64,000 bases of DNA from Myxococcota bacterium (GTDB lineage Bacteria; Myxococcota_A; Polyangia; HGW-17): NCBI GenBank assembly GCA_036802685.1, contig DAIRVS010000006.1, positions 1,073-65,072 on the forward strand. Direction: 5' to 3'. The notes beneath the pieces are model-generated. The model made no database searches, had not been told where the DNA came from, and worked only from the letters and a program-made list of their open reading frames with translations. Below, in pieces: positions 44,514 through 63,188 of this stretch. A program made the translations under genes and the position numbers. Position 1 is the first letter of the stretch. Every line of letters starts with the position of its first letter.

Positions 44514-45455
44514 CTACTGCATCGGGGCAGGGGGTACGACGGGGGCGATCATCGCGCCGGGGACGGTCATGCGCGGGGCCATCATGATCGCGCCCGGAGG
44601 GGGCACGGTCAGCGTGGGGGGGGCCATGCCGCCCGGCGGGGGCGGGACCATGGCGTCGGCCGGGGCGTTGGGATCGGCGGCCGGGGCGTTGGGATCGGCG
44701 GCCGGGGCGGCCTTGATCTCGACGAGCTCGATGTCGAAGATCAGGACCTCGTTGGGACCGATCTTCTGGCCGCCGCCCATCTCGCCATAGGCCAGGTTGG
44801 CGGGGATGAACAGTTTCCATTTGGAGCCCTGGGGCATCAACTGCAGCGCCTCGGTCCACCCCTTGATCACGCCGGAGACGCCGAACTCGACGGGCTTGCC
44901 GGCCTTCTCGGAGGAGTCGAACTCGGTGCCGTCGATGAGCGTGCCTTTGTAGTGGCAGGCGACCGTGTCGTTGAGCCCCGGCTTCGGACCCGTGCCCTCC
45001 TGGACGATCTGGTACTGCAGGCCGCTGGGGAGCACGACCACGCCCGGCTGGGCCTTGTTCTTCTCGAGGAACTCCTGCCCGCGCTTGAGGGCCTCCTCGC
45101 CCTTGGCCTTGCGCTCGGCCATCATCTTCTGCATGCGCTGGGTCTGGAACTCGCCCATCACCTTGCGCATCTCCTGCTCGTCGATGAGCGACGGCTTCTT
45201 GGCCTGGGAGTCGCCCACGCCAGCCTCGAAGGCGCGGATGTTGACCTTGAAGTCCTTGCCCATGTTGAACCCGACGATGTACGACACCTTGTCCTCGACG
45301 GTGGCGAGGTCGGCCAGCGTGAGGGCGCCCTTGGGGGCCTCGCCCGTGGCGCCGGGGGCGCCGGGCTTAGCGGGATCCTTCTTGTCCGGGCAGGGCTGCG
45401 CCTTGCAACCGAAAAAGGCCGTTGCGAAAAGAACCATGATCAATGCGGTTTTCAT
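44514..45455 (-). CDS. FKBP-type peptidyl-prolyl cis-trans isomerase lipoprotein (FkpA-like) with a Pro/Ala-rich C-terminal tail
   Basis: Lipobox FFGC; dimerisation helix; FKBP core GVVVLPSGLQYQIVQEGTG...FDSS...GWTEAL...LAYGE. The start was set at MKTALIMV; the ORF extends to 45575. Confidence 0.8.
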   Translation of the reverse strand: MKTALIMVLFATAFFGCKAQPCPDKKDPAKPGAPGATGEAPKGALTLADLATVEDKVSYIVGFNMGKDFKVNIRAFEAGVGDSQAKKPSLIDEQEMRKVMGEFQTQRMQKMMAERKAKGEEALKRGQEFLEKNKAQPGVVVLPSGLQYQIVQEGTGPKPGLNDTVACHYKGTLIDGTEFDSSEKAGKPVEFGVSGVIKGWTEALQLMPQGSKWKLFIPANLAYGEMGGGQKIGPNEVLIFDIELVEIKAAPAADPNAPAADPNAPADAMVPPPPGGMAPPTLTVPPPGAIMMAPRMTVPGAMIAPVVPPAPMQ

Positions 45456-45718
45456 TTGAACCAACTCCTTGAATAAATGTTGCCCATGAGGCGACACGCC
45501 CCGGGGCACGGGGCCACAAGTTATCCAAAACCGGAAAAAAGTAGAGAAAAAAATGCGTACACCCGGAGGGGTCATATATTATTTTATATAAAATCGATAA
45601 AATTCCGCTCCGGTTGAAAAGGAACCATAATTCCCGTTGGCCGTTTTTTCCAAGCCGTGGTAGCAATATGTCGGGTCCCGCCCGCGCGATTCCGCCTGAG
45701 CGACCCGGAGGTCTCGCG

Positions 45719-47743
45719 ATGAACCGTCTGCCGCTTGCCCTGCTGCTGCTTTTCCCCATCCTCGCCTGCACCCAGACGCCCGAGGGCGTCGCCCCGGAAG
45801 AATACATCCTGTATGGCACCCCTGACACCACCGCCGCCCACCAGGCCGTGGTGTACATCACCATGGAGTCCGGCGGTTACGGCGGCGCCTGCTCCGGAAC
45901 GCTCATCGCGCAGAACGTGGTGCTCACGGCCGCCCACTGCGCGGCCGCCCCCGCGAACATGCGGGTCTACATCGGCAACAGCGTCAACACGTTCTCCACC
46001 GAGCTCAGAGTCTCCCAGGTCACCGTGCATCCGAACTGGGATCCCAACTTCCAGCAGACCAACAACCTGGCCAACGACATCGCGCTGTTGCGCCTGTCCT
46101 CCAACGCCCCCGGTTCGGTCGTGCCCATCCCGTACCTGCCCTCGTCCCTGGCGCTGACCTCGGCCGACGTGAACAACACGAACCTGCTTTTCATGGGCTT
46201 CGGCCTCACCGAGACGGGCTCCTCGGGCACGAAGCTCAAGATGACGCAGGTCCTGGCCAACATCTGCGAGGGCTCCTCGTGGTGCAACGTCAGCATCCCC
46301 AACCTCGGCACCACCCAGGTCCCGCCCAACACCATCGGCATCCGGATGAACGCCAACGGCGGCATCTGCAGCGGCGACTCCGGCGGACCCGCCTTCGTCA
46401 CCCGCGGCGGCGTCGAGTACGTGGCCGGCATCAACTCGTTCGTCATGCAGAACAGCTCGCAGCAGTGCGACTACTTCGGCGCGGCCACCAAGGTCGACCG
46501 CTTCACGTCCTTCATCGCGGACTTCCTCGGCGTCGACACCGAGGACTGCGACAACGGCACCGACGATGACGACGACGGCCGGATCGACTGCGACGACACC
46601 GATTGCGCCTCCGATCCCGCGTGCCAGGAGACCGCCTGCGAGCTCGCCACCACGGTGGCCTGCGGCGCCACCATCTCCGGCTCCACCCTGGGCGGCCCCC
46701 TGTCCTTCGTCAACTACGGCAACGACTGCACCGGCGGCTACCCGATGAACGGCTCCGAGAACGTGGTGCAGGTGATCGCCGGCGCCGGCACCATCGTCAC
46801 CGCCCGCCTGACGATCCAGTCCAGCTCCACCGACCTGGACCTGCTCCTGGTCAAGGGCGCCTGCGACCCCGCCAACTGCACCACCGGCAGCCTGAACGCC
46901 CCTGGCCAGACCGAGACCCTGACGTTCACCATGGACCAGAACCCGCACTTCCTGTTCATCGAGACCTACCAGAACGCGGGGCCCTACACCCTGCAGATCA
47001 CCTGCGAGAACCAGCAGCCCGTGCCCGAGGACTGCGACAACGGCCTCGACGACGACGGCGACGGCGATACCGACTGCGACGACGACGACTGCGACGGCGA
47101 GCCCGGCTGCGGCCCGGCTGCCGAGGACTGCGACGACGGGGGTGACAACGACGACGACGGCGCGATCGACTGCGAGGACGCCGACTGCTTCGGCGAGCTC
47201 GCCTGCGAGCAGGCCGTCGAGGACTGCGACAACGGCCTCGACGACGACTACGACGGCTTCACCGACTGCGCCGACATGGACTGCAAGCCCAAGGTCGCCT
47301 GTGGCGAGGAGCCCGCCGAGTCATGCGCCAACGGCGTGGACGACGACGGCGACGGCAGAACCGACTGCGACGACCCGCTGTGCCGTTCCTACGCCGACTG
47401 CCACCCCGGCCTCGAGATCTGCAACAACGGGCTGGACGACGACGGCGACCAGCGGATCGACTGCGCCGACGCGGACTGCCAGACCTTCTCCGGGTGCCCG
47501 GAGCAGGCCGAGGACTGCGACAACCGCGAGGACGACAACGGCGACCAGCGGGTCGACTGCGACGATCCCCGGTGTTCATCCTCCACGCCCTGCCTGCTCA
47601 ACGCCCCCTGGAACAAGACGTATGAGACCGACGGCTGCTCCTGCCGCGCGGCCGGCGGCGGCCGGCGCCCGAACGCCGGTCTGTGGCTGTCGGGCCTGCT
47701 GCTCGGGCTCCTCGCGCTGCGCCGCAGGATCCGAAGGATCTGA
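45719..47743 (+). CDS. secreted trypsin-like (S1) serine protease with Asp-rich CDxGxDDDGDGxxDCDD repeats and a MYXO-CTERM sorting tail
   Basis: Signal/lipobox MNRLPLALLLLFPILAC; catalytic triad context LTAAHC, DIALL, GDSGGP; about eight acidic Cys-bracketed repeats; C-terminus GCSCRAAGGGRRPNAGLWLSGLLLGLLALRRRIRRI. Confidence 0.8.
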   Translation: MNRLPLALLLLFPILACTQTPEGVAPEEYILYGTPDTTAAHQAVVYITMESGGYGGACSGTLIAQNVVLTAAHCAAAPANMRVYIGNSVNTFSTELRVSQVTVHPNWDPNFQQTNNLANDIALLRLSSNAPGSVVPIPYLPSSLALTSADVNNTNLLFMGFGLTETGSSGTKLKMTQVLANICEGSSWCNVSIPNLGTTQVPPNTIGIRMNANGGICSGDSGGPAFVTRGGVEYVAGINSFVMQNSSQQCDYFGAATKVDRFTSFIADFLGVDTEDCDNGTDDDDDGRIDCDDTDCASDPACQETACELATTVACGATISGSTLGGPLSFVNYGNDCTGGYPMNGSENVVQVIAGAGTIVTARLTIQSSSTDLDLLLVKGACDPANCTTGSLNAPGQTETLTFTMDQNPHFLFIETYQNAGPYTLQITCENQQPVPEDCDNGLDDDGDGDTDCDDDDCDGEPGCGPAAEDCDDGGDNDDDGAIDCEDADCFGELACEQAVEDCDNGLDDDYDGFTDCADMDCKPKVACGEEPAESCANGVDDDGDGRTDCDDPLCRSYADCHPGLEICNNGLDDDGDQRIDCADADCQTFSGCPEQAEDCDNREDDNGDQRVDCDDPRCSSSTPCLLNAPWNKTYETDGCSCRAAGGGRRPNAGLWLSGLLLGLLALRRRIRRI

Positions 47744-47807: not shown

Positions 47808-48572
47808 TTACAACATCCCCTCCCGCATCAGCAACTCACGCAACGCGATCAACGCCACGCTCTCTTCGGGCATCTCGAGGGCCGAGAGCCCCCGTCTGTC
47901 CCGCTCGGCGACCACCGGGTCCGCCGGGATCGCGCCGAGCACCCGCAGCCCGCCGTCCTCGAGCTGGGCCACCAGCCCGGGATCCGGCGCCTCCACGCGG
48001 TTGAACACCACCCCGGTCAACTCCGGGTTCATGCCCGGGGAGCGGTCGATCTTCGTCTTCGCCAACAACGCGGTCCGCGCCCCCCGCAGGGAGTTGTCCG
48101 TCAGGATGAGCGCGTGGGTCACCGATCGGGTAACCTCGCGGTTGATCTGCTCCACGCCCGCCTCCGCGTCGATGATGACCGTCTCGAACTGCGCGGCGAG
48201 CTGGCCCAGGGTCTCGCGCAGCAGGTTGTTCACCGAACAGTAGCAGCCCACGGTGTCGGTGTGCCCCATCACCAGCAGGGCGTGCTCCGGAGCTTCCACG
48301 AGGGCCTCGAGGAGCAGGTAGTCGATGATCTCCGAGAGCCGTGAGGCCTCCTCGCCCTTGGCGATCCGCGCCTGGCGCAGGATCTCGGCGCGGGCCTCTC
48401 CGATGGTCTTGTAGTCCTGGACCCCGAGGGCGGTGGCGAGCCCCATGGCGGGGTCGGCGTCGATGAGCAGCGGCCGTTGACCGGCGTCGATGACAAGCCG
48501 GGCGGTCAGCGCGGACAGGATGGACTTGCCGCTGCCGCCCTTGCCCAGAAAGGCGATGGTCCTCGTGCTCAT
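47808..48572 (-). CDS. CooC-like MinD/ParA-superfamily metallocentre-assembly ATPase (CxC motif)
   Basis: Deviant Walker A GKGGSGKS, DADP motif (LIDADPAMGL), and CooC-type CxC (GCYCS). Confidence 0.7.
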   Translation of the reverse strand: MSTRTIAFLGKGGSGKSILSALTARLVIDAGQRPLLIDADPAMGLATALGVQDYKTIGEARAEILRQARIAKGEEASRLSEIIDYLLLEALVEAPEHALLVMGHTDTVGCYCSVNNLLRETLGQLAAQFETVIIDAEAGVEQINREVTRSVTHALILTDNSLRGARTALLAKTKIDRSPGMNPELTGVVFNRVEAPDPGLVAQLEDGGLRVLGAIPADPVVAERDRRGLSALEMPEESVALIALRELLMREGML

Positions 48573-48573
48573 G

Positions 48574-49329
48574 TCACTTCCTCCTGCGGAAGGTGATGAC
48601 CTCCCGGATGGTGTCGCACACCGGCTTCTCGTCGCAGGTACGGCAGTCCAGATCGCTGCAACTGATCCCGCCGTCCTCTTCCCAGCGCAGCCGCCTGTGC
48701 TCCCCGTCGACGACCGCGGCCGCGGCGGCCAGGGGCTCCAGCGCGCGCACCCGGGCGTCGTCCCCGACGACGAGCACCACGTCGACCCGCCCGATCCCGG
48801 GGAGCTCGGCGGCGTAGGCGGCCCGCACGGTCTGGGCCAGCGCCCGCGGGGTGAACGAGTCCGCCGCTCGACGGTGGACGCGGATCCACAACCGCCCCGA
48901 CAGGCTGCGGGTCATCACCAGCGGCAGCCGGTGGGTCAGGTGCAGCACGCCGGCTACCGGCCCCTCCAGCGGGTCCAGATCCTCGGGCAGCTCCACCAGC
49001 GCCAGCAGCGCCAGGGATTTCGACTTACCCCGGTTCCCGTCAGACGATGACCCGCCTTCCATCTCCTCCACACCACTACGGACGTACACGCGGTCGGTCA
49101 CCAGCCTGCGCTCCCGCGTCCACAGGGCACGACACACCGAGGGCGTCCCCGGCGCGCCCAGCTCCAGCGCCGTGTCCCCGGCGAGCACGACCGTCGCCTG
49201 CCGCTTGCGCTCCGGTTCGTAGCCCAGGGCGGCCACGGCGGCCACGTCCCCCGGCGCGAGGATCTCGAACCCGCCGAGCATCTGGTGGATCCGGCGGATC
49301 AGATCACCGTGATCGGATCCGGCGCTCAA
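48574..49329 (-). CDS. hypothetical protein with a C-terminal Cx4Cx2Cx5C motif
   Basis: 251-aa ORF ending ISCSDLDCRTCDEKPVCD; translationally coupled within the operon. Confidence 0.4.
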   Translation of the reverse strand: MSAGSDHGDLIRRIHQMLGGFEILAPGDVAAVAALGYEPERKRQATVVLAGDTALELGAPGTPSVCRALWTRERRLVTDRVYVRSGVEEMEGGSSSDGNRGKSKSLALLALVELPEDLDPLEGPVAGVLHLTHRLPLVMTRSLSGRLWIRVHRRAADSFTPRALAQTVRAAYAAELPGIGRVDVVLVVGDDARVRALEPLAAAAAVVDGEHRRLRWEEDGGISCSDLDCRTCDEKPVCDTIREVITFRRRK

Positions 49330-50147
49330 GGTCCCCTCCCCGCGCGCCCGGAAACCCGCTCCGCCGCGCCCTGACCGGCGAGGAGCGCCGCCCCGTAGGC
49401 AGCCGCGAGTTGGGGATCCATGGGGATGACGGACACCTGGTGCCCGAGCACCTCCCCGAGGGTCCGCGTGAACGCCGGGATGTGACCCAGTCCGCCCACG
49501 ACGACCACGGGCGGTCCGGTTTCACTGCGGTTGGCCAGCGTCAGCGCCTTCTCGGCGATGGCCACCAGGATCCCGGCGAGGAGCTCGGGTCCCGGGACGC
49601 CCTGGTTGACGCGGCTGACGACCTCGCTCTCGGCGAACACGGCGCAACTGTTGGACATGCGGTAGGGTCGTGCGGCGGCGGCGGCGACGTCCGAGACCTC
49701 CTCGAGCGGCACGCACAGGGAGCTGGCGATCATCTCGAGGAACCGGCCGCTGCCGGCCGCGCACTTCTCGGTGACGGCGCGGTCCAGCACGTGGCCCTCG
49801 GGGGACAACGCAGCGGAGCGGACGAACAGCGCGCCGCCGTCGATCACGGTGCGCGCCCCCGGGACGAGGGTCGCCACGGCCCGGGCCGCGCATGCGGCCT
49901 CGTCGAGGATGCGCCCCGACCGGGAGAGCGCCCGACCGGCGGCGGCGGCGCCAAAGCCGGTGACCGCCTTCTTGCGCACCTGGAAGCCGAAGAGCCCGGC
50001 CTGCTCCAGGGCGGCGCGCTCCGACGCCCGCACCACCGACCTGAACTCGCCGGCCAGCTCGCGCACGTCGGCGCCCAGGATGCGTCCGTCCTTCACGACG
50101 CAGACCTTCACGTACCGCGTGCCCAGATCGACGCCGGCGGTGATCAC
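49326..50147 (-). CDS. CoA-substrate-specific enzyme activase (BadF/BadG/BcrA/BcrD ATPase family), paralog 2
   Basis: ITAGVDLGTRYVKV..., DGGALF, EKCAAGSG. A GTG start overlaps the upstream stop (GTGA). Confidence 0.7.
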   Translation of the reverse strand: MITAGVDLGTRYVKVCVVKDGRILGADVRELAGEFRSVVRASERAALEQAGLFGFQVRKKAVTGFGAAAAGRALSRSGRILDEAACAARAVATLVPGARTVIDGGALFVRSAALSPEGHVLDRAVTEKCAAGSGRFLEMIASSLCVPLEEVSDVAAAAARPYRMSNSCAVFAESEVVSRVNQGVPGPELLAGILVAIAEKALTLANRSETGPPVVVVGGLGHIPAFTRTLGEVLGHQVSVIPMDPQLAAAYGAALLAGQGAAERVSGRAGRGP

Positions 50148-51034
50148 GGCGATCCCCCGGTGCAGCCCGGGCACGCCGGCGCCGCGTCGGCCGGGCCAGC
50201 GGCCATCGGTTCCGACGGGTCTCCGGCTTCTTGAACGCGCCGGTCTTCCTGCCGGGCGCGGCCGTGCTCCAGGCGGGCGAAGCAGGCGGCCCCCAGAGCG
50301 CCCATGACCTGGGGATCGTGGGAGAGCGGCACGAACCGCACGCCCAGGGCCGCCTCGAGCTCCCGGACCACGGCCGCATTCTTGGACACGCCCCCCGAGA
50401 TGCACACCCCCGGGCGCAGGGTCACCTTTCCGGCCAGCGCGGCCACCCTGCGGGCCACCGAGGCCGTGATCCCCCGGGCGATGTCCTCGACGCGCCGCCC
50501 CTGGTGCATCCACTGCATGACGTCGAGCTCCATGAAGATGCTGCACTTGTTCGAGACCGGCAGCGCCCGCCTCGAGCGCAGGGCGCGGGGCCCCAGCTCC
50601 CCGAGGGGGAGGCCCAGGGTGCGGGCCAGGAGCTCCAGCGTGCGGCCGGTGCCCGCCGCGCACTTGTCGTTCATGGCGAAGTCGTCCACCAGGCCCGCGG
50701 CGTCCAGGACCACCACCTTGCAGTCCTGCCCGCCGATGTCGATGACCGAGCGCACGGCGGGGTTGCTCGTGAACGTCCCCAGCCCGTGGCAGGAGATCTC
50801 GCTGCGCTCGAGGTCCGCGAAGGGGAGCTCGTGCCGACCGTAGCCGGTGGCGCAGACGCGGGCGAGGTCGGCGCGGCGGACCCGCGCCTTCGCGAGGGCC
50901 GCCTCGAGCACGCGGCCGGCGGACTGCGCGGGCGTGGCCTGAACCGGCTCCACGTGCCAGGCGATCACGCGTCCGTCACGCAGCAGCACGGCCTTGGCGG
51001 TCAGCGAGCCCACGTCGATGCCGGCGAAGATCAT
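50144..51034 (-). CDS. CoA-substrate-specific enzyme activase (HgdC/BcrA-D family), paralog 1
   Basis: GIDVGSLTAKAV, DIGGQDCK, NDKCAAGTG: an acetate/sugar-kinase-fold [4Fe-4S] archerase. Confidence 0.8.
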   Translation of the reverse strand: MIFAGIDVGSLTAKAVLLRDGRVIAWHVEPVQATPAQSAGRVLEAALAKARVRRADLARVCATGYGRHELPFADLERSEISCHGLGTFTSNPAVRSVIDIGGQDCKVVVLDAAGLVDDFAMNDKCAAGTGRTLELLARTLGLPLGELGPRALRSRRALPVSNKCSIFMELDVMQWMHQGRRVEDIARGITASVARRVAALAGKVTLRPGVCISGGVSKNAAVVRELEAALGVRFVPLSHDPQVMGALGAACFARLEHGRARQEDRRVQEAGDPSEPMAAGPADAAPACPGCTGGSP

Positions 51035-52164
51035 GACCGGTTCCCCAGCTTCTCGTAGAACGCCTGGAGCCGGGTCTTCAACTGCCCGACCTCGCCGCCG
51101 TACAACTCCCGGGTCAGCGCGAGCGCCGGGATCCCGGCCTTGGCCAGCTCATGGGTGGCGATGTAGTTCTCGCCGGACATCATGGAGCAGAACTCGAGCT
51201 TCTCCAGGATCACGGCGTCGGCCGCGTATGCGCGCACCGCCTCGAGGGTGTACGCCATGCGGCCCTTCACGTCGTCCATCATCCGTGGGCAGGACACCCG
51301 CCCCAGGTACCGGCGCGCCAGGGCGTCCAGGGGATCGCCGTCCGCGCCCACGTCCCGGTCGAAGGTCCGCGCCCCCAGGCAGATCGCGTCGGCCACCACC
51401 AGGGCGCCGTGGGACTCCACCAGCTCCAGGTGCGAGAGCTCCTCGAGGCAGCTCCCCGTGACGAAGATCCGCAGCCGCGGCGTCCCCACCGGCGCCCGCC
51501 CCGCGCGCGCCTCGCCGAGGGCGCGCTCGATCAGGTCCACCGCGTCCTCGGGGGGCACCGCGGTCACCGCCAGCATCAGCGCGAGGAACTCGGTCCCCGT
51601 CACCGGCGGTGCTGGCGCGCGGCGCAGCTCGGCGAGCTCCCGCAGGAGCCGGCGGCGCCGGTCGTACAATTCAATGGACGCCCGCAGCCGATCGTCGGTC
51701 ACCTCCACGCCCAGGCGCTCGCCGAGGAACCCGGCCAGCTTCACCAGCTCGAGCCGGAGCTGCGCGAGGCAGGCAGGCGAACCCGCGTGAGGCACGAACA
51801 GCAGGTACGAAAAGCCGGTGTCCGGCGCCGCGTGGCGCCAGTTGTCGTAGAGCCGGCGGTTGTGATCGCACCCGTTCATGAACACGATCCCGTCCAGGAA
51901 GTCCAGCTCCCCGCGCAGCCCCTGGTCCATCACGCGGCGCACGAAGGAGCAGTTGGCCGACGAGAAGTACGTGTCCCCCAGGGCGGTGCCGCAGCTCCCC
52001 ACCGCGCGCATGCGGTACGGCACGGCGCCGGCCGCGTGGAGGAGCTCCTCGGGGACGTAGGAACAGAAGTGGCCGATCACCGGACGCCCGGCGCGGGCGG
52101 CGGCGGCCAGCCTCTCGTTGCGGGGGACCTCGGCGAGCCTGCGCAGTTCGGAGAAGACGCTCAT
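51031..52164 (-). CDS. 2-hydroxyacyl-CoA dehydratase / benzoyl-CoA reductase-family subunit (HgdB/BcrB-like)
   Basis: HGD-D family fold with conserved Cys, including a C-terminal CSMMSGE-type motif. The start was set at MSVFSELRRL inside the longer ORF. Confidence 0.7.
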   Translation of the reverse strand: MSVFSELRRLAEVPRNERLAAAARAGRPVIGHFCSYVPEELLHAAGAVPYRMRAVGSCGTALGDTYFSSANCSFVRRVMDQGLRGELDFLDGIVFMNGCDHNRRLYDNWRHAAPDTGFSYLLFVPHAGSPACLAQLRLELVKLAGFLGERLGVEVTDDRLRASIELYDRRRRLLRELAELRRAPAPPVTGTEFLALMLAVTAVPPEDAVDLIERALGEARAGRAPVGTPRLRIFVTGSCLEELSHLELVESHGALVVADAICLGARTFDRDVGADGDPLDALARRYLGRVSCPRMMDDVKGRMAYTLEAVRAYAADAVILEKLEFCSMMSGENYIATHELAKAGIPALALTRELYGGEVGQLKTRLQAFYEKLGNRS

Positions 52165-53618
52165 GACGCGAATCCGTTCTCGACGAAGAAGGCGGTCAGT
52201 TGCCGCTTGACCTCGGCCTCGGACATCACCCGCTTGTCGAAGATGTCGGCCTCCATCACCAGAAGCGGCAGGCCGTGACGCCGGCACACGTCGCGGACGA
52301 TGCGCCCCAGCGCGCGGTTGTGCTTGCACCCCTGGTGCCCGTTCTGGATCACGCAGTCCGGCGAGAAGTGGGCGATCTGGCGCTCCAGGTCGTCCACGGT
52401 CTCCCGGGCCGCACCGTGGGCCTGCTTGATCATGCCCATGTACAGCCGGTCCCGGGCCACGCCCATCATCATGGTCTCCAGGCTCGTCATGTCGATGGGC
52501 GGGAAGATGGCGTCGCCGATGTAGTCGCCCACCACCACGCCGCCGAAGGTCCGCTCGATCCACATGTACATCTCCGAGAACACGATGGGCATGTCCGCCA
52601 CGATGATGCGGAACTTCTCCACCCGGCGCCGAAGCCGGGGGTGGCGCAGGCGAAACTGGCCGACCTTGTGCGTGATCCGCGCGCTCTCGAGGAGCTCGGG
52701 GTTCCCGGAGCCGGTGATCTTCGAGCCCCAGGCCGTCTGCAGGTTCAGCGCGAGCCCGGCCGACGGGATCGCCTGGTTCATGATCGTGATCTCGTCGAGG
52801 AGGCGGTTCTGCTCGTCCAGCACGCGGACCCCGCGGCGGAACTTCTCCCAGTTGTACTTGCGGTGCAGCGTGTCCTCGAGGAAGGCGATGGCCTCGAACA
52901 GGTTCTTCGAGTAGGCCATCACGTCGTCGTCCTCCTTGGTGTACGCCGTGTTGATCGTGTAGGCCGGCGCCCCGGAGATGTACTCCATCAGTTGCGAGGC
53001 CGTGCGCCCGGCGTCGCAGGGGTGGGCCACCGAGATGATGGCCGCGGGATCGGGGATCTGCTTCAGCAGGTACGCCCCCAGGCTCACGCGATCCATGGCG
53101 CAGATGTCGTCGGCGATGCCCTCGCGCTCCACGGCCTCGAGGCAGGCCACGTGGCCGTCGGTGCCCACCATGTTGGCGATGGCCATGAACGCCTCGGGCA
53201 CGAACGGCGCCACGTCGTCGAACCCCGAGGCCACCTCCACGGGCACCGGCCAGCCCAGCCACACCAGCGGCTCGCGGCCGTCCCGCGCGTCGAGCACCCG
53301 CTGGAAGAACGCCAGCGTGGCGATGCAGTCGTGCCGGTAGGCGGCCAGCTCCCCCGGCGTCCAGCGCCCGGAGCCCACCTTCTGGTAGCCGAACCGCGCC
53401 GCCCGGTTGAGCCGGTGCTCGCCGTGGAACAGGAACGGCTGCACGGCCTTGAGCATCGCCCAGGCAGCGGGCCCCTTGTCCAGCACCTGCGTGCCGAGCT
53501 TCGCGCCCGCGATCACGCTCTCGATGATTTCATAGGGCTTCAGTTCCATGGGCTCCCGGGATCCGTCCTCCGACGCCGGGTCGTCCCCGATCTGGCGGAA
53601 ACCGTCTTTTACCAGCAA
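52161..53618 (-). CDS. 2-hydroxyacyl-CoA dehydratase / benzoyl-CoA reductase-family subunit (HgdA/BcrC-like)
   Basis: 485-aa HGD-D family protein with conserved Cys (..CAMDR.., ..HPCDAGR.., ..HQGCKHN..). An alternative start at MELKPYE is possible. Confidence 0.7.
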   Translation of the reverse strand: MLVKDGFRQIGDDPASEDGSREPMELKPYEIIESVIAGAKLGTQVLDKGPAAWAMLKAVQPFLFHGEHRLNRAARFGYQKVGSGRWTPGELAAYRHDCIATLAFFQRVLDARDGREPLVWLGWPVPVEVASGFDDVAPFVPEAFMAIANMVGTDGHVACLEAVEREGIADDICAMDRVSLGAYLLKQIPDPAAIISVAHPCDAGRTASQLMEYISGAPAYTINTAYTKEDDDVMAYSKNLFEAIAFLEDTLHRKYNWEKFRRGVRVLDEQNRLLDEITIMNQAIPSAGLALNLQTAWGSKITGSGNPELLESARITHKVGQFRLRHPRLRRRVEKFRIIVADMPIVFSEMYMWIERTFGGVVVGDYIGDAIFPPIDMTSLETMMMGVARDRLYMGMIKQAHGAARETVDDLERQIAHFSPDCVIQNGHQGCKHNRALGRIVRDVCRRHGLPLLVMEADIFDKRVMSEAEVKRQLTAFFVENGFAS

Positions 53619-53687
53619 TCCCCACGATTGTCACGCCTCGGTCACGAAAACGTCACGGAATGTTGACAAACAGCCGGGAAGGACGCC

Positions 53688-55136
53688 CTAGATTTCCTGC
53701 ACCGCTTCGGGTTTCTCCGGCAGGCGCTCCATCGTGAGGCCGGTGAAACCGTAGAAGATCGACACCAGCGGGTTGAACCAGTTGAGGATGGCCCAGGGGA
53801 GGTACAAGAGCGGGGAGACGCCCAGGGTGGCGGCCATGAAGGCGCCGCAGGTGTTCCAGGGGACCAGCGGCGAGGTGAGGGTGGCGCTGTCCTCGAGGGC
53901 GCGGGAGAGGTTGTGGGGCGCGAGGCCCAGCCTCTCGTAGGTGGACTTGTACATGCGGCCGGGGAGCACGATGGCGATGTACTGGTCGCCGGCGACCACG
54001 TTCATGCCGACGGCGGTGCAGACGGTGACCAGCACCAGGCTGCCGGTGCCGTGCACCAGCCTCAGGATGGCCCGCGTGATGGCCTGCAGGAAGCCGGCGG
54101 CCTCCATGGCGCCGCCGAAGGAGACCGCGCACAGGATCAGGGCCACGGTGTCCATCATCTTGTCCAGGCCGCCGCGGGAGAGCAGGTCGTCGAGGGCCGC
54201 GCTCCCGGTGTCGATGGTGAAGCCGCCCTTGGCCGTGGCCAGCACCGACTTCCAGGAGGCGTCCTGGAACCACACCGCGAAGAGCATGCCCAGCAGCGCG
54301 CCGAACAGGATCGACGGGAGCGCCGGGCGCTTCGTGGCCACGAGGCCGATGACCACCAGCGGGGGCAGGAGCAGCCACGGGGTCACGAAGAAGTGCGCGC
54401 GGATGGGGGACACCACGTCGGTGGCGGGGCCGCCGCCGCCGCCCCAGTCGGCGAACAGCCCGATGACGAAATAGGCGGCCAGCGCGACGAGCAGGCTCGG
54501 ACCGGTGGTCCACACCATGTGGCGGATGTGGGTGAAGAGGTCGCTGCCGGCCACCGCGGGCGCGAGGTTGGTGGTGTCCGAGAGCGGCGACATCTTGTCG
54601 CCGAAGTAGGCGCCCGAGACCACGGCGCCGGCGGTCATGGGCGCGGGCACGCCCAGGGACGCCCCCAGGCCCATGAGCGCGAGGCCCACGGTGCCGGCGG
54701 TGGACCACGAGCTGCCGGTGGCCAGCGACACCACCGAGGAGATCAGCGCCGCGGTGAACAGGAAGTAGGTGGGGCTCACGAGGGAGAAGCCGTAGACGAT
54801 CAGCGACGGCACGATGCCGCTCTGGAGCCAGGAACCGATGAGCAGTCCCACGGCCATGAGCAGCAGGATCGCCGGCAGCGTGGACGCGATGGACGCGGTC
54901 ATGGCCTCGAGGGTGCGCTCCCAGGTCACCTTCCGCCAGCGGGCCAGGGCGGCGACCAGCGCCGACGTGAAGATCAGCGCCAGGTGGGGCTGCAACTTGA
55001 AGCGCAGGACGGTGAGGTACAGGGCGCCCAGCAGGAAGACCACCGGGACCAGCGCGAGGACCAGCGGAGGGAGGCCGGCGTCGGTCGCGGGACCGCCGGT
55101 CGGCGCCGGTGCCCGATCGTTAGTAGGGGAGCTCAT
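53688..55136 (-). CDS. Na+/H+ antiporter NhaC family
   Basis: 482-aa protein with about 12 TM helices and an NhaC-like sequence. Confidence 0.7.
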   Translation of the reverse strand: MSSPTNDRAPAPTGGPATDAGLPPLVLALVPVVFLLGALYLTVLRFKLQPHLALIFTSALVAALARWRKVTWERTLEAMTASIASTLPAILLLMAVGLLIGSWLQSGIVPSLIVYGFSLVSPTYFLFTAALISSVVSLATGSSWSTAGTVGLALMGLGASLGVPAPMTAGAVVSGAYFGDKMSPLSDTTNLAPAVAGSDLFTHIRHMVWTTGPSLLVALAAYFVIGLFADWGGGGGPATDVVSPIRAHFFVTPWLLLPPLVVIGLVATKRPALPSILFGALLGMLFAVWFQDASWKSVLATAKGGFTIDTGSAALDDLLSRGGLDKMMDTVALILCAVSFGGAMEAAGFLQAITRAILRLVHGTGSLVLVTVCTAVGMNVVAGDQYIAIVLPGRMYKSTYERLGLAPHNLSRALEDSATLTSPLVPWNTCGAFMAATLGVSPLLYLPWAILNWFNPLVSIFYGFTGLTMERLPEKPEAVQEI

Positions 55137-55833
55137 AGCGGACGAACAGGCCGGCGTACCAGGGCATCATCTCGAAGTTGAAATCCAGGTCCTCGGGCTC
55201 GTTGCACTCGCCGCCGTCGGCCTCGTAGAAGCAGGCGTCGCTCCAGTTCGGGTACCAGAAGCGGCCCATCAGGCCCAGGTGCAGGCGCTGGGCGACGCGC
55301 ACGCTCAGGCCGGCGACGGCCCCCACGGTGACGCCGGTGGCGCGGAAGATCAGGTGCTTGCCGTCCTCCTCGTCGAAGACGCCGTCGGCATAGACGGTCG
55401 CGTAGCCGAAGGCGGCCGAGGCGAACAGTTCGAGGCGGCTGCCCAGGGGCAGGATCCCGCGGGCCTCGAAGTTGAGCACGTAGTCGTACAGGGTGTCGAT
55501 CTGGTCCGGGGCCATGCGCCCGTAGTGCACGTTGAACCCCAGCGCGAAGTGGCGGTTCATGCGGTACAGCGCGGTGAGGTCGGCGCCCCAGGACGGGCCG
55601 CCCTCGGAGCAGAATTCGCCGGAACAGGCGTTGAGGCCGCCGCCGGCCTCGAACAGCAGCGAAGACACGGAAGGCCTCGACGCCGGGGGCTTCACTTCGG
55701 GCGCCGCGGCGGGCGCCGCGGCGGGCGTCGCGGCGGGCTTGTCGGCCGCGGCGGGCTCGGCCGCGCGCGCGGGCACAGCCAGAAAGACGGTCAGCAACAG
55801 GGAAATCACAAGGGCGGCATCAGGGCGTCGCAT
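55120..55833 (-). CDS. outer-membrane beta-barrel protein
   Basis: Signal peptide, Ala/Pro-rich linker, alternating amphipathic beta-strands, and a C-terminal aromatic residue (..RYELPY). Confidence 0.55.
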   Translation of the reverse strand: MRRPDAALVISLLLTVFLAVPARAAEPAAADKPAATPAAAPAAAPEVKPPASRPSVSSLLFEAGGGLNACSGEFCSEGGPSWGADLTALYRMNRHFALGFNVHYGRMAPDQIDTLYDYVLNFEARGILPLGSRLELFASAAFGYATVYADGVFDEEDGKHLIFRATGVTVGAVAGLSVRVAQRLHLGLMGRFWYPNWSDACFYEADGGECNEPEDLDFNFEMMPWYAGLFVRYELPY

Positions 55834-55992: not shown

Positions 55993-57837
55993 TCAATCAG
56001 ACCGGTACTCCAGGTCTTCCACGCCCTTCAGACGACCATTACCCGACACCATCAGGAACGTGCAGACATCGAAGACGATCGACCCAAGTTCTTGCGCTGC
56101 TCGGTCCAGACTCGAACCTTTTGACCATCGATGTCTCTTCAAGCTCAGGCGAAACTTCGGCGGCAATTCGAGCGGCACATTGAAATTCACATGATGAGCA
56201 ACACCTTTGGGATCGAGCCCCGTGATGTACAGACCGTCGTCCCGCAGGAATGCGTGCATGATGGGCCTTCCCTCGAAGAGATCCCCCAGGGCGATGCCTT
56301 GCCAGAACAGCGCCAACGGCACTCGCAACTGAAATACGCCCATCTTGGCCGTCTCGAGAGGGTTTGGCTGCACGGGGAAATACCAGTTCAGCACGAGGTT
56401 CTCACGATCGAGCTCCGGGGTCGAAGTCAACATGGCCGTCTGGAGTTGTCGCTCCAGTTCGAGCAGAGAAACTGGCAGAGGACCAGCGGGTATCACCGGT
56501 GGCGAATAATCGTATCCGGTAAAAACCATGCACCAGTGCTTTTGCAGAGCCTCTTTTCCATAGCTTCTCCCCAACCTGAGCCGGAGACCGGATTCTCCTG
56601 GTCCACTTTCCCGCGCCGTGACCCAAGGATTGGCCCGCAGATCTTCACGGAGCTTGGCACTCAAGTCCTGCAGAAACCTCGGAGGCAACGGCTCGGGCCT
56701 TTCGTCTTCGTACCAATGGGATACCACGTTCGCCTCTGGCGCATCGATCCCTTCATCGGGAAGTGGAGCGACAGCCTCCGACCGCAGTTTCACCGAAGTC
56801 TTTCGCTCGAGACGCTCAGGAAATTCAGACTGATACATTAAGGCGCGAAACACAATCCGCTCCCCTCGCGAGAGCAAGCTGGCCGGGGATAAATACGCTG
56901 TGCGTGCGCGCGTTTCACGCTGGGCTTTCGAACTCGCGGGCACATCCGTCACCAGCGGTCGTCGCAACGACTGCCGTCGGAAAAACCGATGCAACACCAA
57001 CTGCCGTGTGGTGGGTCTGACTTTCCATTCCTTCTCCAGGAGTCTCAGATTCCAGTCCCTGTCCTTCGCCACCGCTAAAATGGCTTCTCCTCGCTGGCAG
57101 TTCGCGTAATACCCCCAGTTCTGGTGCAGGACCTCCGAACGCTTCCAACGCCGGACCAAGTCCAAGGGGTTGGTCGTCATCAGGAAAAGGCCCGTCCAAT
57201 TTCCATCGATGGAAACCAGGGTGGCCATCATATCGGGCGTGCCGTCCACGCGGTCCAGGGACTGCGCCAAGGTTCGTCCAGGCTCCTGGAAGCTGTCCAT
57301 TCCAAAAACCAGCGTGTGCAAAGAGAGACGGAACAGAGACGGCTGCGGCTCGTCTTCGACGTTGCGCCCCAAATGGATGAAGGCGACGGATGCCTGCGAC
57401 GGTTTCCCCGAAAAAATGGTCTTCCTTTGTTCCGCCTCTTTCGAGATGAATACGCCTGAATCCTCGAGATAGGAAGACATGACCAGCCGATGGAGACGGA
57501 ACCGTTCTTCTCCGGACACGGTGGACAAACTCCCACAGAGCAGAACGAACCCGCCCTCGATGACCGGCTCTTCCTGGTACAGTCTTTCGACCGACTCCAT
57601 GAAGAGTTCCTGGTTTTTTTTCAACACCCGGGAAACTGGCGACGACATTCTCTCGCTTGTGAACATGCCGCGGTCGTCCAGCCAACGTCGGTGTCCGGTT
57701 ACGCCCCACAATTCCAGAGTTTCCACGAATTCCCGATACTCCCGGCACTGCCGAGGATTTTGGTACGACCAAATCACCTCGTCGACAATCGTGGGAATTT
57801 GTTGCCAATCCGGTTCCTGAAACGCGATACGGGCCAT
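55993..57837 (-). CDS. hypothetical protein (614 aa) of intermediate GC, divergent from the giant orphan gene
   Basis: Long ORF with no recognisable motif; the start was set at MARIAFQEPDWQQ; codon usage is atypical for the host. Confidence 0.45.
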   Translation of the reverse strand: MARIAFQEPDWQQIPTIVDEVIWSYQNPRQCREYREFVETLELWGVTGHRRWLDDRGMFTSERMSSPVSRVLKKNQELFMESVERLYQEEPVIEGGFVLLCGSLSTVSGEERFRLHRLVMSSYLEDSGVFISKEAEQRKTIFSGKPSQASVAFIHLGRNVEDEPQPSLFRLSLHTLVFGMDSFQEPGRTLAQSLDRVDGTPDMMATLVSIDGNWTGLFLMTTNPLDLVRRWKRSEVLHQNWGYYANCQRGEAILAVAKDRDWNLRLLEKEWKVRPTTRQLVLHRFFRRQSLRRPLVTDVPASSKAQRETRARTAYLSPASLLSRGERIVFRALMYQSEFPERLERKTSVKLRSEAVAPLPDEGIDAPEANVVSHWYEDERPEPLPPRFLQDLSAKLREDLRANPWVTARESGPGESGLRLRLGRSYGKEALQKHWCMVFTGYDYSPPVIPAGPLPVSLLELERQLQTAMLTSTPELDRENLVLNWYFPVQPNPLETAKMGVFQLRVPLALFWQGIALGDLFEGRPIMHAFLRDDGLYITGLDPKGVAHHVNFNVPLELPPKFRLSLKRHRWSKGSSLDRAAQELGSIVFDVCTFLMVSGNGRLKGVEDLEYRSD

Positions 57838-57990
57838 TTTTCGTACTCCATGATTACCAGCCCAACTTGTCATTCGTCGACCGCAGACGTTTCCACGGAC
57901 GCGTAAACGAACAAAGACTGACAAAGAATTTTATGATTTTTTTCTTTTGAAATACAGTATGATGACGCGTCTTGTTTTGAGGAATCAACA

Positions 57991-60900
57991 ATGACCAACA
58001 AGACCAATAAATATAATTATAGCTTATTGTTTTTCCCGGATCAAAAAGTCGGGAAATCGAAAATGGCCTTTTTGCAGCACAAGTTGCTGGCCAGAGGTTT
58101 CGTCGATTTCCGGGACTCCGACCGAAGCCTTCTCCATCGTGATGATACCCTCCTCGTGCATGACTTCTTCAGCACAGCAGACAGGGATGATCAGCTATTT
58201 CTGGGTTTCTATTTGGATGGGTTTCCGGAAGATGACAAAACCTTGACGATACAGGATTTTGCCAAAGGCAAACATGACCAGAGTGGAAAACTGGAGGATC
58301 TGTTTTTTTTATCGGCATCCAGGAAAATTCTTTGTTGCATCGTTGTGCCGGACGAGATAAAAATCATCACGAAAAAGTTGCCCATGTTCCAACGCAGGTC
58401 GGACCAATCGATCGCCGTGGTGTTTATCCATTGTCATGCCGACTCTGGCCTAGGTAACCTCACCTCTGAGTTGTTCTCCATTTTGATGAAATTTATGACT
58501 TCCAACCACACGCACCTTGATAAAGCCTATTTGGATACATTTTATTATTATAGTGATGATTACTTTCCATTCTTGCAGAATTTCGGTGCGTTCGAAATTT
58601 CCGTTGGCTCATGTGAAATCCAATGTCTGGATGAATACAGACCTCCAATAAGAAAAAATCGGCAGGGCGTGGACGCCTTGAAATTGGAAAACCTCGAAAG
58701 GCACACATTGGAACGAAGCCGGATGGACTGGCAACTCGCGACTCCCGCCATGCCCCTACCTCCTGCAGAATTGAACTCCCCGAAACCGGAAATCCAGTTG
58801 TTGAAAACGACGAAGGAAAAGACTCTGCTCCATGAACTCGATAAGCTCGGCCGACAACTACAGGTTGTAATCAAACAGGTGCACCAGGGAAATGCGTCCG
58901 GAGCTCTCCAAAACCTGCTGGAAGTGATTGAAAATCTGAAAGAAATCCAGGACCCCGGAGAAGTCGTCCATCGTATGCTCTTTTTTGCCCTGCTCTGGTA
59001 CGGGAATCTCTGGTTGAACAGGAAAAACTATGACAGTGCCCTGCTAGCCTGGGAGGAGGCAATATCCGTCCAGGAGCGATACGCAGGCGGGCAATATTAT
59101 TCCCAAGAACAGTCATTGTTCATCTATGATGCACTGAGTTATATATATTTTAAAAAAGACAATTTCGATGCCATGGAATTTTTCATTGAAGAGAAATTCA
59201 AACTTCTGGAGAAACTGCCTGACCATGATGGACCGTTGAAGACCATTTACCTGAACACTCAATGTCAAATATTAATACTTTTGCTCAAAAATGCTGAAAT
59301 AGCAAAGGCATTGACGATGTCCAGTCAACTACTGCAGGCCTTTTTTTCCGGGGAGCATGAACTGCCATCACATTGGCAGGTCTTTCAATTGGTCTGGAGC
59401 CTATACACCGAAGCAGCGAGCAGATGCAGGAACATCGACGGATGGCTGGAGGCAAGCACCGCGAAAGCCGGATTATTGAACTCTCTCGCTCCCCTGACTG
59501 AATCGACCTGGCAAGAGGAGTTGTTCACCGACACCGAAATCGAACGCTCGATCGGATGGGTTTTCCATGAAATTCCCAATCGCTTCATGGATCCCGACAA
59601 CCAACAGCGCATCCAAACCATTCGAAGGAAATTCGTCGAATCGCCCTGCCCCCCAGCCCTCCAGCAAAAAATGCTCAACTGGGCTTTTCATGTTGGGTAT
59701 TTTTACTTGAGAAATCAACAACTTGAGCGGGCCCACGAGTTCTTTGAAATCGCAAGAAAACATCTGACGGAATTTCAACTGGACCCTCGCACGATGGAAC
59801 ATGTCTTCGTGCTCTTTTATGAATTCGCTGGTGCGGCGGCCCACACTTCAGGTGATGCATATGCCGCATTTTTCTGGAGCAAACGAGAGTATGACTATTT
59901 CTCCACTGACAATCAAGAACCGGGCAAACTGGCCTCCTGCTTGTATCGGTGGCTCTATAGTTCAATTCGTGTGCAAAACCAAAATGGAATCGAAACGGCA
60001 GTGAGTGCGGCATCTCCCTTGCTGGAATTGCCGGTTTACCCAGATGTGTACGAAGTGGATCCACTTTTACTTTGCAAACTGTACCTATTGTGCACCAAGC
60101 AATTGCAGGAAAAGGACCGCGATGTGAACACGCGGTTGATCCGCCTAAACAATGAACGAATCCTGCGAGTCACGGAAGATCCCAAATATTCGCTTCAAGA
60201 AGTCGCAAGTCTATATCTGCAATTCTATCAGAACTTCCTGACATCCACGCGTGGCGCGGCCTTTTTATCCCTGAAACGTCTATTGAACCGATACTGTACG
60301 AAAAAGGATCCCTCGGATCAACGCGAAGAATGTTTTCTAATCATGATGAAGACCGGCATTCTGATTCAATACATGATTGCACTAGTTCACCCTTCATATT
60401 ATGTTCTTTTTTCTAATATCGTCCATGTAATCCGAATGGTTGAATCTCCCCGCCAGGACCAGTTCCATCTGCTTGAATATTATTTCCTATCAATGTATTA
60501 CCTTGAAAAAAAGAACCAAGAGCAAGTATTACCTCAAGCCCTGCGAAAATACCTTAGCCTGGACAGCCAATTGTTACTGCAAAAATGCACCCTGAAAGAC
60601 CGAACCCTGGTTCGTCCAGAGCTCTTTGAGGCCATTCATAAGTTAATTGACTCTCATGTGGAAAGTCGTTCATTCAACAGACAGGAGGAACTGTATCGAG
60701 TCATTTTCAGCGCTTGTTTTTTGGCATCGATGAATCCAAGCGAAGATGACCTGCTCAGCCAATTGGCCATTGCCGTCGAGCGAATCCCCGAGCAGAACCT
60801 CAAATACGGCATCAACAAGCAAATTGCCAAACTGCTCCATGAATGGACGCCTATCAATCCAAAGAAGTTCATTCCGGAGTTTGTGCGATCCGTGAAAAAC

Positions 60901-62031: not shown

Positions 62032-62051
62032 ATATTTATGGAGTATTATTA

Positions 62052-63188
62052 TTGATTCCCTCCATCCACGACGAGCGGCTTCGAATAGTGGCAATTTCGG
62101 GTCGCCCGATCGATTCCCTCGGTGGCGCCGAACGATCACTGGCTCGGTTATGTAAGGCCTTGTCGGCTCATCACGATTTGCAGTTGTTGGCGCCAACAAC
62201 AGATGGTGCCACGATAACAAATGATGGTAGGGAAGATTTCTATTTATACAATGATGTCATGAAAAAACTCGAGTCAGTTGGCGCAGTTGATATCATATAC
62301 CTTGGCAGCCACTTCATGCTGAAAACTCCGACTGCGTTTTCAAGAATGAAAACTCTATTTCCAACAGCCAAGCTTGTCCTGAAGGAGACCACAGCTGGCA
62401 AACTGATTCGTGTGCTCGCACGTCTGGAGAAGCAGGAAGCAAGCCAGATTTTGCGAGACCTGGACGCCATTGTCTGCACCTCGTATAGAATTTGGCATGA
62501 CTATCAATATCTTTCAGGATTCAATGGCCAATTGGAACTGATTCCCAATGGTGTCGACACCCGGCTTTTCGCGCCTGTGACGGAGGAAACGCAGACAAGG
62601 ATCCGCCGCCGTCTGGGTTTGGACACTTCTCGACCACTCGTCATCTTTTCCGGCCGATTCGCGGAAAAGAAAAATCTCGATGTGATTTATGGCGCCTGGC
62701 TGGACATGGAGAGACATTTTGGAGATTGGGCCCAATTGGTGCTGGTCGGCAAGATCCACAAACACTACGATGCGGGTATTGTGCGCCTGATGCGTGAAGA
62801 CCTGCGTAACGTGAAGTTTATTGGGCCGTTCTCGAGGGACGAAGACTTGGCATCCTGTTACCAGGCCGCCGACTTTTTTTTGGCGCCCACTTCCAGGGAA
62901 GGTCTTTCCAATGCATTTCTGGAAGCATCGGCTTGCGGTCTCTACCCAGTTGTCACGGCAATCTCTGGATATGAAGATGTCATCACGACACCGAAGTCGG
63001 GCATGTTGGTGGAAGAACGCAATACATCTGACGTCATCCGATGCTTGAAGATGCTGAACCTAAATCCCGACACATACCGCCGGTACGCTCGGGACTGCCT
63101 GAGGCCTCATATCGTCTCAAATCACGACATCCACCATGTCGCACAATTGTATCATAATTTATTTACCAGATTGCGCGAGGTCAGATGA
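62052..63188 (+). CDS. family 4 (GT-B) glycosyltransferase
   Basis: The C-terminal half carries the GT4 signature ..FAPTSREGLSNAFLEASACGLYPVVTAISG... The start is uncertain (TTG at 62052 or GTG at 62088). Its stop overlaps the next start (ATGA). Confidence 0.65.
   Translation: MIPSIHDERLRIVAISGRPIDSLGGAERSLARLCKALSAHHDLQLLAPTTDGATITNDGREDFYLYNDVMKKLESVGAVDIIYLGSHFMLKTPTAFSRMKTLFPTAKLVLKETTAGKLIRVLARLEKQEASQILRDLDAIVCTSYRIWHDYQYLSGFNGQLELIPNGVDTRLFAPVTEETQTRIRRRLGLDTSRPLVIFSGRFAEKKNLDVIYGAWLDMERHFGDWAQLVLVGKIHKHYDAGIVRLMREDLRNVKFIGPFSRDEDLASCYQAADFFLAPTSREGLSNAFLEASACGLYPVVTAISGYEDVITTPKSGMLVEERNTSDVIRCLKMLNLNPDTYRRYARDCLRPHIVSNHDIHHVAQLYHNLFTRLREVR

Follow-up and report, generated by a model that had tools for sequence, protein, structure and literature searches.

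The window analysed here is a 64,000-nt stretch of DNA from a Myxococcota bacterium (GenBank assembly GCA_036802685.1, contig DAIRVS010000006.1, positions 1,073 to 65,072). Between positions 47808 and 53549 its minus strand carries six co-directional genes, g1 to g6, arranged head to tail in DNA with a G+C content of about 70% (Table 1). The first four encode two large subunits of the HGD-D family, termed alpha and beta, and two different ATPases of the BcrAD type. The last two encode a truncated relative of acetyl-CoA synthase (ACS), here called ACS-like (ACSL), and a CooC-like ATPase. The core of the cassette is a new subfamily within a known superfamily, the one which includes the class I benzoyl-CoA reductases (BCRs), the 2-hydroxyacyl-CoA dehydratases (HADs) and the double-cubane cluster proteins (DCCPs).

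Table 1. Features of the cassette and of the DNA next to it (window coordinates; ORF, open reading frame)
Feature	Position	Strand	Remarks
g1, alpha (catalytic) HGD-D subunit	52161..53549	-	462 aa; ORF reaches TTG 53618
g2, beta HGD-D subunit, predicted [8Fe-9S] double-cubane carrier	51031..52164	-	377 aa
g3, ASKHA electron-transfer ATPase, canonical paralog	50144..51034	-	296 aa
g4, second ASKHA ATPase paralog	49326..50147	-	273 aa; GTG start; degenerate phosphate-2 motif
g5, truncated acetyl-CoA synthase-like protein (ACSL)	48574..49329	-	251 aa; ACS middle (A2) domain and C-terminal Cys4 motif
g6, CooC/AcsF-type MinD-family ATPase	47808..48572	-	254 aa
Conserved upstream element, candidate operator or promoter	53627..53669	-	TTGTCAACA, then three GTGAC direct repeats 11 nt apart
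NhaC-family gene	53688-55136	-	70 bp upstream of the cassette
237-aa protein	55120-55833	-	weak outer-membrane beta-barrel hint
643-aa ORF	55993-57924	-	low-G+C block
1346-aa ORF	57991-62031	+	low-G+C block
GT4 glycosyltransferase	61896-63188		follows the low-G+C ORFs

The six genes are tightly packed. Start and stop codons overlap by 4 nt at the g1/g2, g2/g3, g3/g4 and g4/g5 junctions (the GTGA of g3/g4 was verified at 50147-50144), and a 1-nt gap separates g5 from g6. This agrees with an initial annotation of the window, made from the sequence alone, which described six closely spaced genes on one strand; all six ORFs are found where it placed them. Its length for g1, 485 aa, was counted from the TTG at 53618 and has to be corrected. 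All orthologs of g1 are 460-462 aa long and have the N-terminus MELKPYEI, so translation most likely starts at the ATG at 53549. The initial annotation also reported no carbon monoxide dehydrogenase (CODH), aromatic-degradation or fermentation genes alongside the cassette. None is present in the window flanks, which hold the NhaC antiporter, the 237-aa protein and a convergent trypsin-like protease. Genes for benzoate-CoA ligase, dienoyl-CoA hydratase, Had/Oah and ferredoxin are missing from the window flanks and from the orthologous loci, as are those for CoA-transferase and 2-hydroxyacid dehydrogenase; neither the window nor its relatives have CODH or a full ACS.

Both large subunits match the Pfam HGD-D family (g1, 1.2e-37; g2, 6.5e-86). 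The best solved relative of g2 is BzdN (8s02_B; 6.1e-43), followed by HadC, MbdN and DCCP. The [8Fe-9S] double-cubane cluster of BzdN is held by Cys36, 73, 100, 263, 293 and 327 (PMC11971306), and in a pairwise alignment these residues correspond to C34, C72, C99, C262, C292 and C326 of g2. The six cysteines are invariant, both in the beta sequences from related loci (31/31) and in the database homologs that were sampled (18/18); the relatives compared with g2 number 48, of which 30 come from loci and 18 from the database. At the same six positions g2 reads CCCCCC, HadC PCCACC and MbdN QCCFSC. The alpha-family profile matches BzdO (4.5e-34) and HadB (1.9e-32). C150, C178 and C408 of g1 align with C95, C128 and C380 of BzdO, which are the ligands of the open-site catalytic [4Fe-4S] cluster; among 30 alpha sequences C150 and C178 are invariant, and C408 is present in 29, the remaining one having a gap. 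Three of the six double-cubane cysteines are lacking in g1. E119 of g1 aligns with Glu65 of BzdO. The position of BzdO His131 is occupied by Gly181, the histidine not being kept, and BzdO Trp46 lies outside the aligned region of this comparison.

The characterised members of the superfamily are only distantly related to the cassette. The identity of g2 to BzdN, MbdN, HadC and DCCP is 24-30% (30% for BzdN), and in a neighbour-joining tree the g2 clade stands apart from all four. None of the NCBIfam equivalog cutoffs for BCR, Bzd, Had and DCCP is reached by g1 to g4. Scores and cutoffs (in bits) are 152/454 for BzdN, 18/449 for BzdO and 167/380 for BzdQ; 138/421 for BcrC, 22/487 for BcrB, 145/578 for BcrA (g3) and 98/313 (g3) or 92/313 (g4) for BcrD; and 29/750 for HadB and 122/700 for HadC. 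The best NCBIfam match of g2 is the double-cubane reductase model NF040772, with 182 bits against a cutoff of 350; the scores of the two subunits with this model are 182 and 38 bits. Because the cutoffs are missed, the identities of g2 are low and its clade is separate, the large subunits do not cluster tightly with any characterised enzyme, and the earlier view that the operon matches none of them is borne out.

The two ATPases belong to the Pfam BcrAD_BadFG family (g3, 1.5e-51; g4, 1.5e-32), and both exceed the 125-bit cutoff of TIGR00241, g3 with 224 bits and g4 with 147. The motifs DVGS and DIGGQD are present in g3, and its cluster cysteines lie in NDKCAAG and SNKCSIF. Both cluster cysteines are also kept in g4, which has DGGALF where g3 has DIGGQD. 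The same is true of the g4-type orthologs (loci L001, L003, L007-L010, L032, L034 and L035): the phosphate-2 motif is degenerate, mostly D[AG]G[AS]LF, and both cysteines are retained. This consistent pattern suggests that g3 and g4 form an asymmetric heterodimer in which one ATP site is weakened. Orthologs of both ATPase types are found in the window clade, in its sister group (metagenome-assembled genomes, MAGs, of Deltaproteobacteria and Spirochaetota) and in Actinomycetota. The combination of two different HGD-D subunits with two different ASKHA ATPase paralogs supports the BCR-like layout proposed in the initial annotation.

The fifth gene was first listed as encoding a protein with a cysteine motif. 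The Cx4Cx2Cx5C end is indeed present, but the homology to a truncated ACS, which is seen with Foldseek and with a family profile, was not recognised. On its own, g5 has no match in Pfam or NCBIfam, nor in a single-sequence search of the PDB; a homolog with 35% identity has a weak match to Pfam CdhC. With an AlphaFold2 (AF2) model of g5 (predicted local distance difference test score, pLDDT, 68), the top 22 Foldseek matches are all ACS/CdhC proteins, with a probability of 1.0 and E-values down to 8e-8. An exhaustive profile search of the g5 family yields 382 cluster representatives, all of about 240-300 aa. A profile of 54 members matches archaeal CdhC (9c0s_E; 3e-20) and bacterial ACS (8cjc_B; 3.7e-20); it spans residues 332-510 of ACS_Ch, which take in the middle domain and extend as far as the initial two cysteines of the A-cluster motif ("YYSCLLCQS"). 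Some relatives of g5 bear the JGI automatic label "CO dehydrogenase/acetyl-CoA synthase beta subunit", and NCBI names them hypothetical.

The C-terminal motif of g5 is C224-x4-C229-x2-C232-x5-C238. Across the 54 members G58, R150, C229, C232 and C238 are invariant, W148 is nearly so, and C224 is usually present. Only the first two cysteines of the ACS A-cluster motif, C-x2-C-x8-C-x9-C, align with g5, and the Cys-Gly-Cys Ni site is absent from its sequence because the chain stops 13 residues after the fourth cysteine. In Clostridium autoethanogenum (Ca) ACS, the adenine of CoA stacks on Trp405 (10.1101/2024.08.05.606187), and the middle domain is the main CoA contact (PMC12289521). With a numbering offset of 21, Ca Trp405 is equivalent to ACS_Ch W426 and g5 W148; the corresponding residue of Mt is W427, and Mt Arg429 corresponds to g5 R150. 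The same constant offset places the acetyl-transfer residues Ca Arg383 and His386 on the "RRIH" of ACS_Ch. Here g5 has A126 and L129, and the family consensus is E/Q. Judged by its sequence, g5 is a remnant of ACS which is unable to be an acetyl-CoA synthase; it plausibly still binds CoA and a cubane.

By Pfam, g6 is a CbiA/MinD-type protein; it carries GKGGSGKS, DADP and GCYC. In the PDB, the g6-family profile finds CooC1 first (3kje; 3.7e-20, full length) and MinD next (4.8e-14). The GC[YF]C of the family aligns with the QCYC of CooC1 (Cys112/Cys114), and the GKGGSGKS of g6 with GKGGVGKT. GKGGxGK, DADP, GCxC and DAEAG are invariant or at least 90% conserved in 22 sequences of the family, with the CxC invariant. 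The full-length match and the aligned CxC uphold the earlier description of g6 as CooC-like. The CxC motif of CooC1 is reportedly a metal-binding site. CooC and AcsF are known partners of CODH and ACS, and acsF often adjoins acsB. Since g5 is derived from ACS, g6 most plausibly serves g5, by analogy with these partnerships, rather than the double-cubane cluster. The characterised CooC-family members CooC and AcsF are reported to insert Ni (Gregg et al. 2016, as cited in PMC10134865). The initial annotation took the CooC-like maturase as a hint of a double-cubane cluster. The conservation of all six ligands in g2 and its relatives backs such a cluster, but the double-cubane of BzdNO assembles in E. 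coli from a construct which encodes only bzdNO (PMC11971306), so a link between this cluster and a CooC-like protein is not needed.

The pairing of these genes is widespread. Of 30 distinct loci that were compared, 28 have the ACSL gene next to HGD-D and BcrAD genes; at least four gene orders and four phyla (Myxococcota, Thermodesulfobacteriota, Actinomycetota and Dehalococcoidia) are represented. A genome scan with a narrow alignment of the g5 family finds 25 loci. Beta, alpha and ATPase genes adjoin the g5-like gene in 23 of these, and 18 also carry a CooC-like gene. They include Haliangium-like Myxococcota, Thermodesulfobacteriota and Desulfatibacillum alkenivorans DSM 16219, a cultured sulfate reducer which has ACSL-CooC-beta-alpha-ATPase among housekeeping genes (L024, 9614-14798). 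Gene orders include alpha-beta-ATP-ATP-ACSL-CooC (where ATP stands for an ATPase gene), ACSL-CooC-beta-alpha-ATP, and a doubled form in which TetR, an additional protein (about 200 aa) and a GMC oxidoreductase also occur. More divergent members, of only about 24% identity, occur as beta-alpha-ATP-ATP-ACSL-CooC-AMP ligase in Actinomycetota and as ACAD-beta-alpha-ATP-x-ACSL in Dehalococcoidia (ACAD, acyl-CoA dehydrogenase). Two other Myxococcota/Deltaproteobacteria MAGs contain orthologous six-gene cassettes with the same composition and entirely different housekeeping flanks.

Doubled cassettes are found in Thermodesulfobacteriota and Myxococcota (L011, L015, L020, L022, L025, L028, L030 and L031). 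They have the conserved protein of about 200 aa, for which there is no Pfam family, between the ACSL and CooC-like genes, and most of them also have TetR, a GMC-type FAD oxidoreductase that contains a Cys-rich insert, or both. The window cassette contains neither the 200-aa protein nor the GMC oxidoreductase.

Sister loci with alpha, beta and two ATPase genes have a beta subunit which is 45-53% identical, and a GMC oxidoreductase. AMP-ligase, thiolase, nitroreductase, ferredoxin and acyl-CoA dehydrogenase genes are often present as well; ferredoxin and nitroreductase-like genes, for instance, occur in L034, which has no adjacent ACSL gene, and in L032, which has one nearby. One sister locus has both ACSL and CooC-like genes in its vicinity; in three, neither is present within the DNA covered. 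A word-indexed search with g1 returns 8 matches and understates the family; local phmmer searches detect alpha relatives in the sister loci at 1e-75 to 1e-87. The term "orphan", which was applied to the operon at the outset, therefore holds for its local isolation but not for the family, which extends over several phyla and has sister loci with acyl-CoA genes. Gene orders are shuffled across phyla, and some sister loci are without the pair in the stretch covered; the association of ACSL with the reductase is thus, as far as the sequences tell, old and functional, but not universal. No paper was found which describes a pairing of ACSL and CooC-like proteins with HAD, BCR or double-cubane enzymes, although the literature coverage was incomplete and this is weak evidence of novelty. 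Apparently the partnership has never been described.

Taken together, the cassette encodes an uncharacterised member of the class I BCR/HAD/double-cubane superfamily, which on balance probably works as an ATP-dependent low-potential reductase with an accessory pair derived from ACS and CooC. By analogy with BcrAD and BzdPQ, g3 and g4 would pair as a heterodimeric ASKHA ATPase whose subunits share a bridging [4Fe-4S] cluster. ATP hydrolysis would push electrons into an [8Fe-9S] double-cubane cluster in g2, where its presence is predicted from the six ligands. From here they would pass to a [4Fe-4S] cluster in g1, which would have three cysteine ligands and an open iron, and the substrate would be reduced by radical chemistry. 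The substrate would probably be an acyl-CoA thioester, because sister loci carry genes for CoA ligase, thiolase and acyl-CoA dehydrogenase and because g5 is of CoA-binding ancestry. The last two proteins would be a co-opted ACS-AcsF-like pair, in which g6 may insert or mend a metal centre of g5 or, via g5, of the reductase. The least certain step concerns g5 itself, which could belong to the complex as an Fe-S subunit that binds CoA or acyl-CoA; its C-x4-C-x2-C-x5-C tail is the predicted holder of a [4Fe-4S] cluster. The combination of a double-cubane, an open cubane and two ATPase paralogs speaks for an ATP-stoichiometric reductase of the BCR type rather than for a dehydratase of the HAD type.

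A more specific proposal is possible but rather doubtful. The CoA-binding middle domain of ACS, its cubane-binding loop and a CooC/AcsF-type insertase may have been co-opted as a dedicated accessory module for a multi-phylum clade of ATP-dependent BCR/DCCP-like radical enzymes. Such a module might build or carry a metal centre new to the superfamily, such as a cubane bridged by Ni or another heterometal and common to g5 and the reductase, or it might couple the handling of CoA thioesters directly to the reductase.

Several points weigh against the cassette being a reductase served by such a pair. The role as a reductase is a predicted one for every member of the family. Loci of the window clade are without genes for a CoA ligase or transferase, a ferredoxin or a downstream pathway, so that in this clade both the CoA substrate and the electron donor are putative. 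MbdN belongs to a genuine reductase and has no double-cubane cluster, so the cluster alone does not define reductases. A maturation role aimed at the double-cubane is not required, given that the BzdNO cluster forms in E. coli. AF2 confidence is low in the Cys tail of g5 (pLDDT 44-60), and g5 as a whole has only four cysteines and no obvious additional Ni ligands. Finally, the closely related loci L034-L038, with alpha, beta and two ATPase genes, lack both ACSL and CooC-like genes in the stretch covered; such genomes may do without the pair or encode it at another site.

The superfamily also includes enzymes of other function, and the same data bear on these. A HAD-type dehydratase (HgdAB, HadBC or FldBC-like), in which the two ATPases would only inject one recyclable electron, would fit the HGD-D membership of both large subunits, the significant PDB matches to HadB and HadC, and the NCBI name of the relatives ("2-hydroxyacyl-CoA dehydratase family protein"). 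The open-site three-cysteine cluster of g1 is likewise common to HadB and BzdO. However, g2 keeps all six double-cubane ligands, two of which have been lost in HadC, and the cassette has two distinct ATPase paralogs rather than one homodimeric activator. The orthologous loci have no CoA-transferase or 2-hydroxyacid dehydrogenase, and the HadB and HadC scores are a small fraction of their equivalog cutoffs; a dehydratase is improbable. The resemblance to BzdNO raises the matter of a genuine class I aromatic-ring reductase of the benzoyl-CoA type. BzdN is the closest solved beta subunit (6e-43), the inventory of clusters is that of BzdNO, there are two ATPase paralogs, and E119 of g1 is aligned with Glu65 of BzdO. 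Against this, the Bzd and Bcr equivalog scores are 18-167 bits for cutoffs of 313-578, the g2 clade lies outside the reference group at 30% identity to BzdN, BzdO His131 is replaced by Gly, and neither the flanks nor the orthologous loci contain dienoyl-CoA hydratase, Had/Oah, benzoate-CoA ligase or ferredoxin genes. This function can be given very little credence.

DCCP reduces acetylene, azide and hydrazine in vitro, and a DCCP-like reductase of a small non-CoA molecule, acting in detoxification or housekeeping, is unlikely but deserves some weight. It would account for the double-cubane reductase model being the best NCBIfam match of g2, for a self-contained cassette among housekeeping genes in Myxococcota and Desulfatibacillum, and for a window clade without a CoA-activating enzyme. 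The score of 182 bits nevertheless falls short of the required 350. DCCP itself is homodimeric and has a single ATPase, whereas the alpha subunit here lacks a second cubane and resembles BzdO and HadB, which are enzymes of CoA esters; AMP-ligase, thiolase and acyl-CoA dehydrogenase genes are linked to the relatives, and a surface for CoA binding is retained in g5. A different role has also been considered for the accessory pair, as an electron-input or regulatory module in which g5 would be a ferredoxin-like [4Fe-4S] donor gated by the binding of CoA or acyl-CoA, and g6 an ATP-dependent docking protein or switch. BCR-type enzymes need a low-potential donor, yet the cassette has no ferredoxin, and ferredoxin and nitroreductase-like genes are found in the sister loci L034 and L032. 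C-x2-C-x5-C with an upstream cysteine, as in g5, is a known [4Fe-4S] motif in WhiB-like proteins. Against this role, no member of the CooC family is known to act in electron transfer, and the CxC is reportedly a metal site in CooC1. The characterised CooC and AcsF insert Ni (Gregg et al. 2016, as cited in PMC10134865). We regard this role for the pair as having a low probability.

The TTGTCAACA/GTGAC block lies 85-107 nt upstream of the ATG of g1; the alpha genes of L008, L009 and L010 are preceded by the same block, and those of L001 and L003 lack it. The NhaC-family gene was considered as a substrate importer and rejected, as it passes the equivalog for the NhaC Na+/H+ antiporter (456 bits, cutoff 370). 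It is linked to the cassette only in the closest relatives, and is 4 kb away in L008. Together with the gene for the 237-aa protein it is kept only in the nearest relatives (L007, L008 and L010), and both genes are outside the cassette. Between 56000 and 64000 the G+C content of the window falls sharply, to 43-58%, compared with about 70% elsewhere. The two low-G+C ORFs at 56-62 kb have no match in Pfam, NCBIfam or PADLOC. The block may be a horizontally acquired surface-polysaccharide island. On the other side of the cassette, regions 40570-42600 and 44514-47743 encode a competence protein that resembles ComEC and carries a metallo-beta-lactamase domain, an FKBP-type isomerase, and a trypsin-like protease of 709 aa; the protease gene is convergent with g6.

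Some of the hardest reductions in biology are performed by members of the BCR/HAD/DCCP superfamily, whose double-cubane cluster was recently recognised as related to the cofactors of nitrogenase. What is apparently new for the superfamily is the obligate-looking partnership with a truncated ACS and a CooC-type ATPase, which is conserved in Myxococcota and in groups as distant as Actinomycetota and Dehalococcoidia. If the pair matures or joins a metal site of the predicted reductase, it would represent a new route of cluster assembly or a new heterometal cofactor, and pieces of the Wood-Ljungdahl pathway would have been reused outside C1 metabolism. Should the pair serve only as donor or scaffold, the family would still mark out, among subsurface anaerobes, a large clade of uncharacterised reductases driven by ATP. 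The family is carried by D. alkenivorans DSM 16219, which is cultured, and is therefore experimentally testable.

One of the known systems closest to the predicted reductase is the Bzd BCR (BzdNOPQ; 8s02). They have in common a heterodimeric HGD-D core with a six-Cys and a three-Cys subunit, two different ASKHA ATPases, and a residue aligned with Glu65. They differ in that identity is about 30%, the equivalog cutoffs are missed, His131 is not conserved, and the cassette is without aromatic-pathway genes or ferredoxin. Bzd clusters have no ACS-like or CooC-like genes; the window cassette has both. The 2-hydroxyacyl-CoA dehydratases (HadBC/HadI and HgdAB/HgdC) share the Pfam families, the three-cysteine alpha cluster and ATP-dependent electron injection. 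The cassette, in contrast, has a full set of double-cubane ligands, two ATPase paralogs and no CoA-transferase context. DCCP and DCCP-R (6eno, 7yyl) share the six-cysteine pattern of g2 and provide its best NCBIfam model. However, DCCP is a homodimer with one ATPase, the partner subunit in the cassette has no second cubane, and the score is 182 rather than 350 bits.

The remaining likeness is to ACS (AcsB/CdhC) with AcsF/CooC. The middle domain of ACS, the first cysteines of the A-cluster, and the CoA-stacking Trp with the Arg that follows it are all found in g5. CooC1 is the closest relative of g6, the CxC is kept, and g5 and g6 are adjacent. Unlike ACS, g5 has no N-terminal domain and almost nothing of the C-terminal one, and it lacks Cys-Gly-Cys and the Arg/His pair near the A-cluster. 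The context differs as well: in place of CODH, a corrinoid protein and a methyltransferase, the partners of this ACS-like protein are HGD-D and BcrAD proteins.

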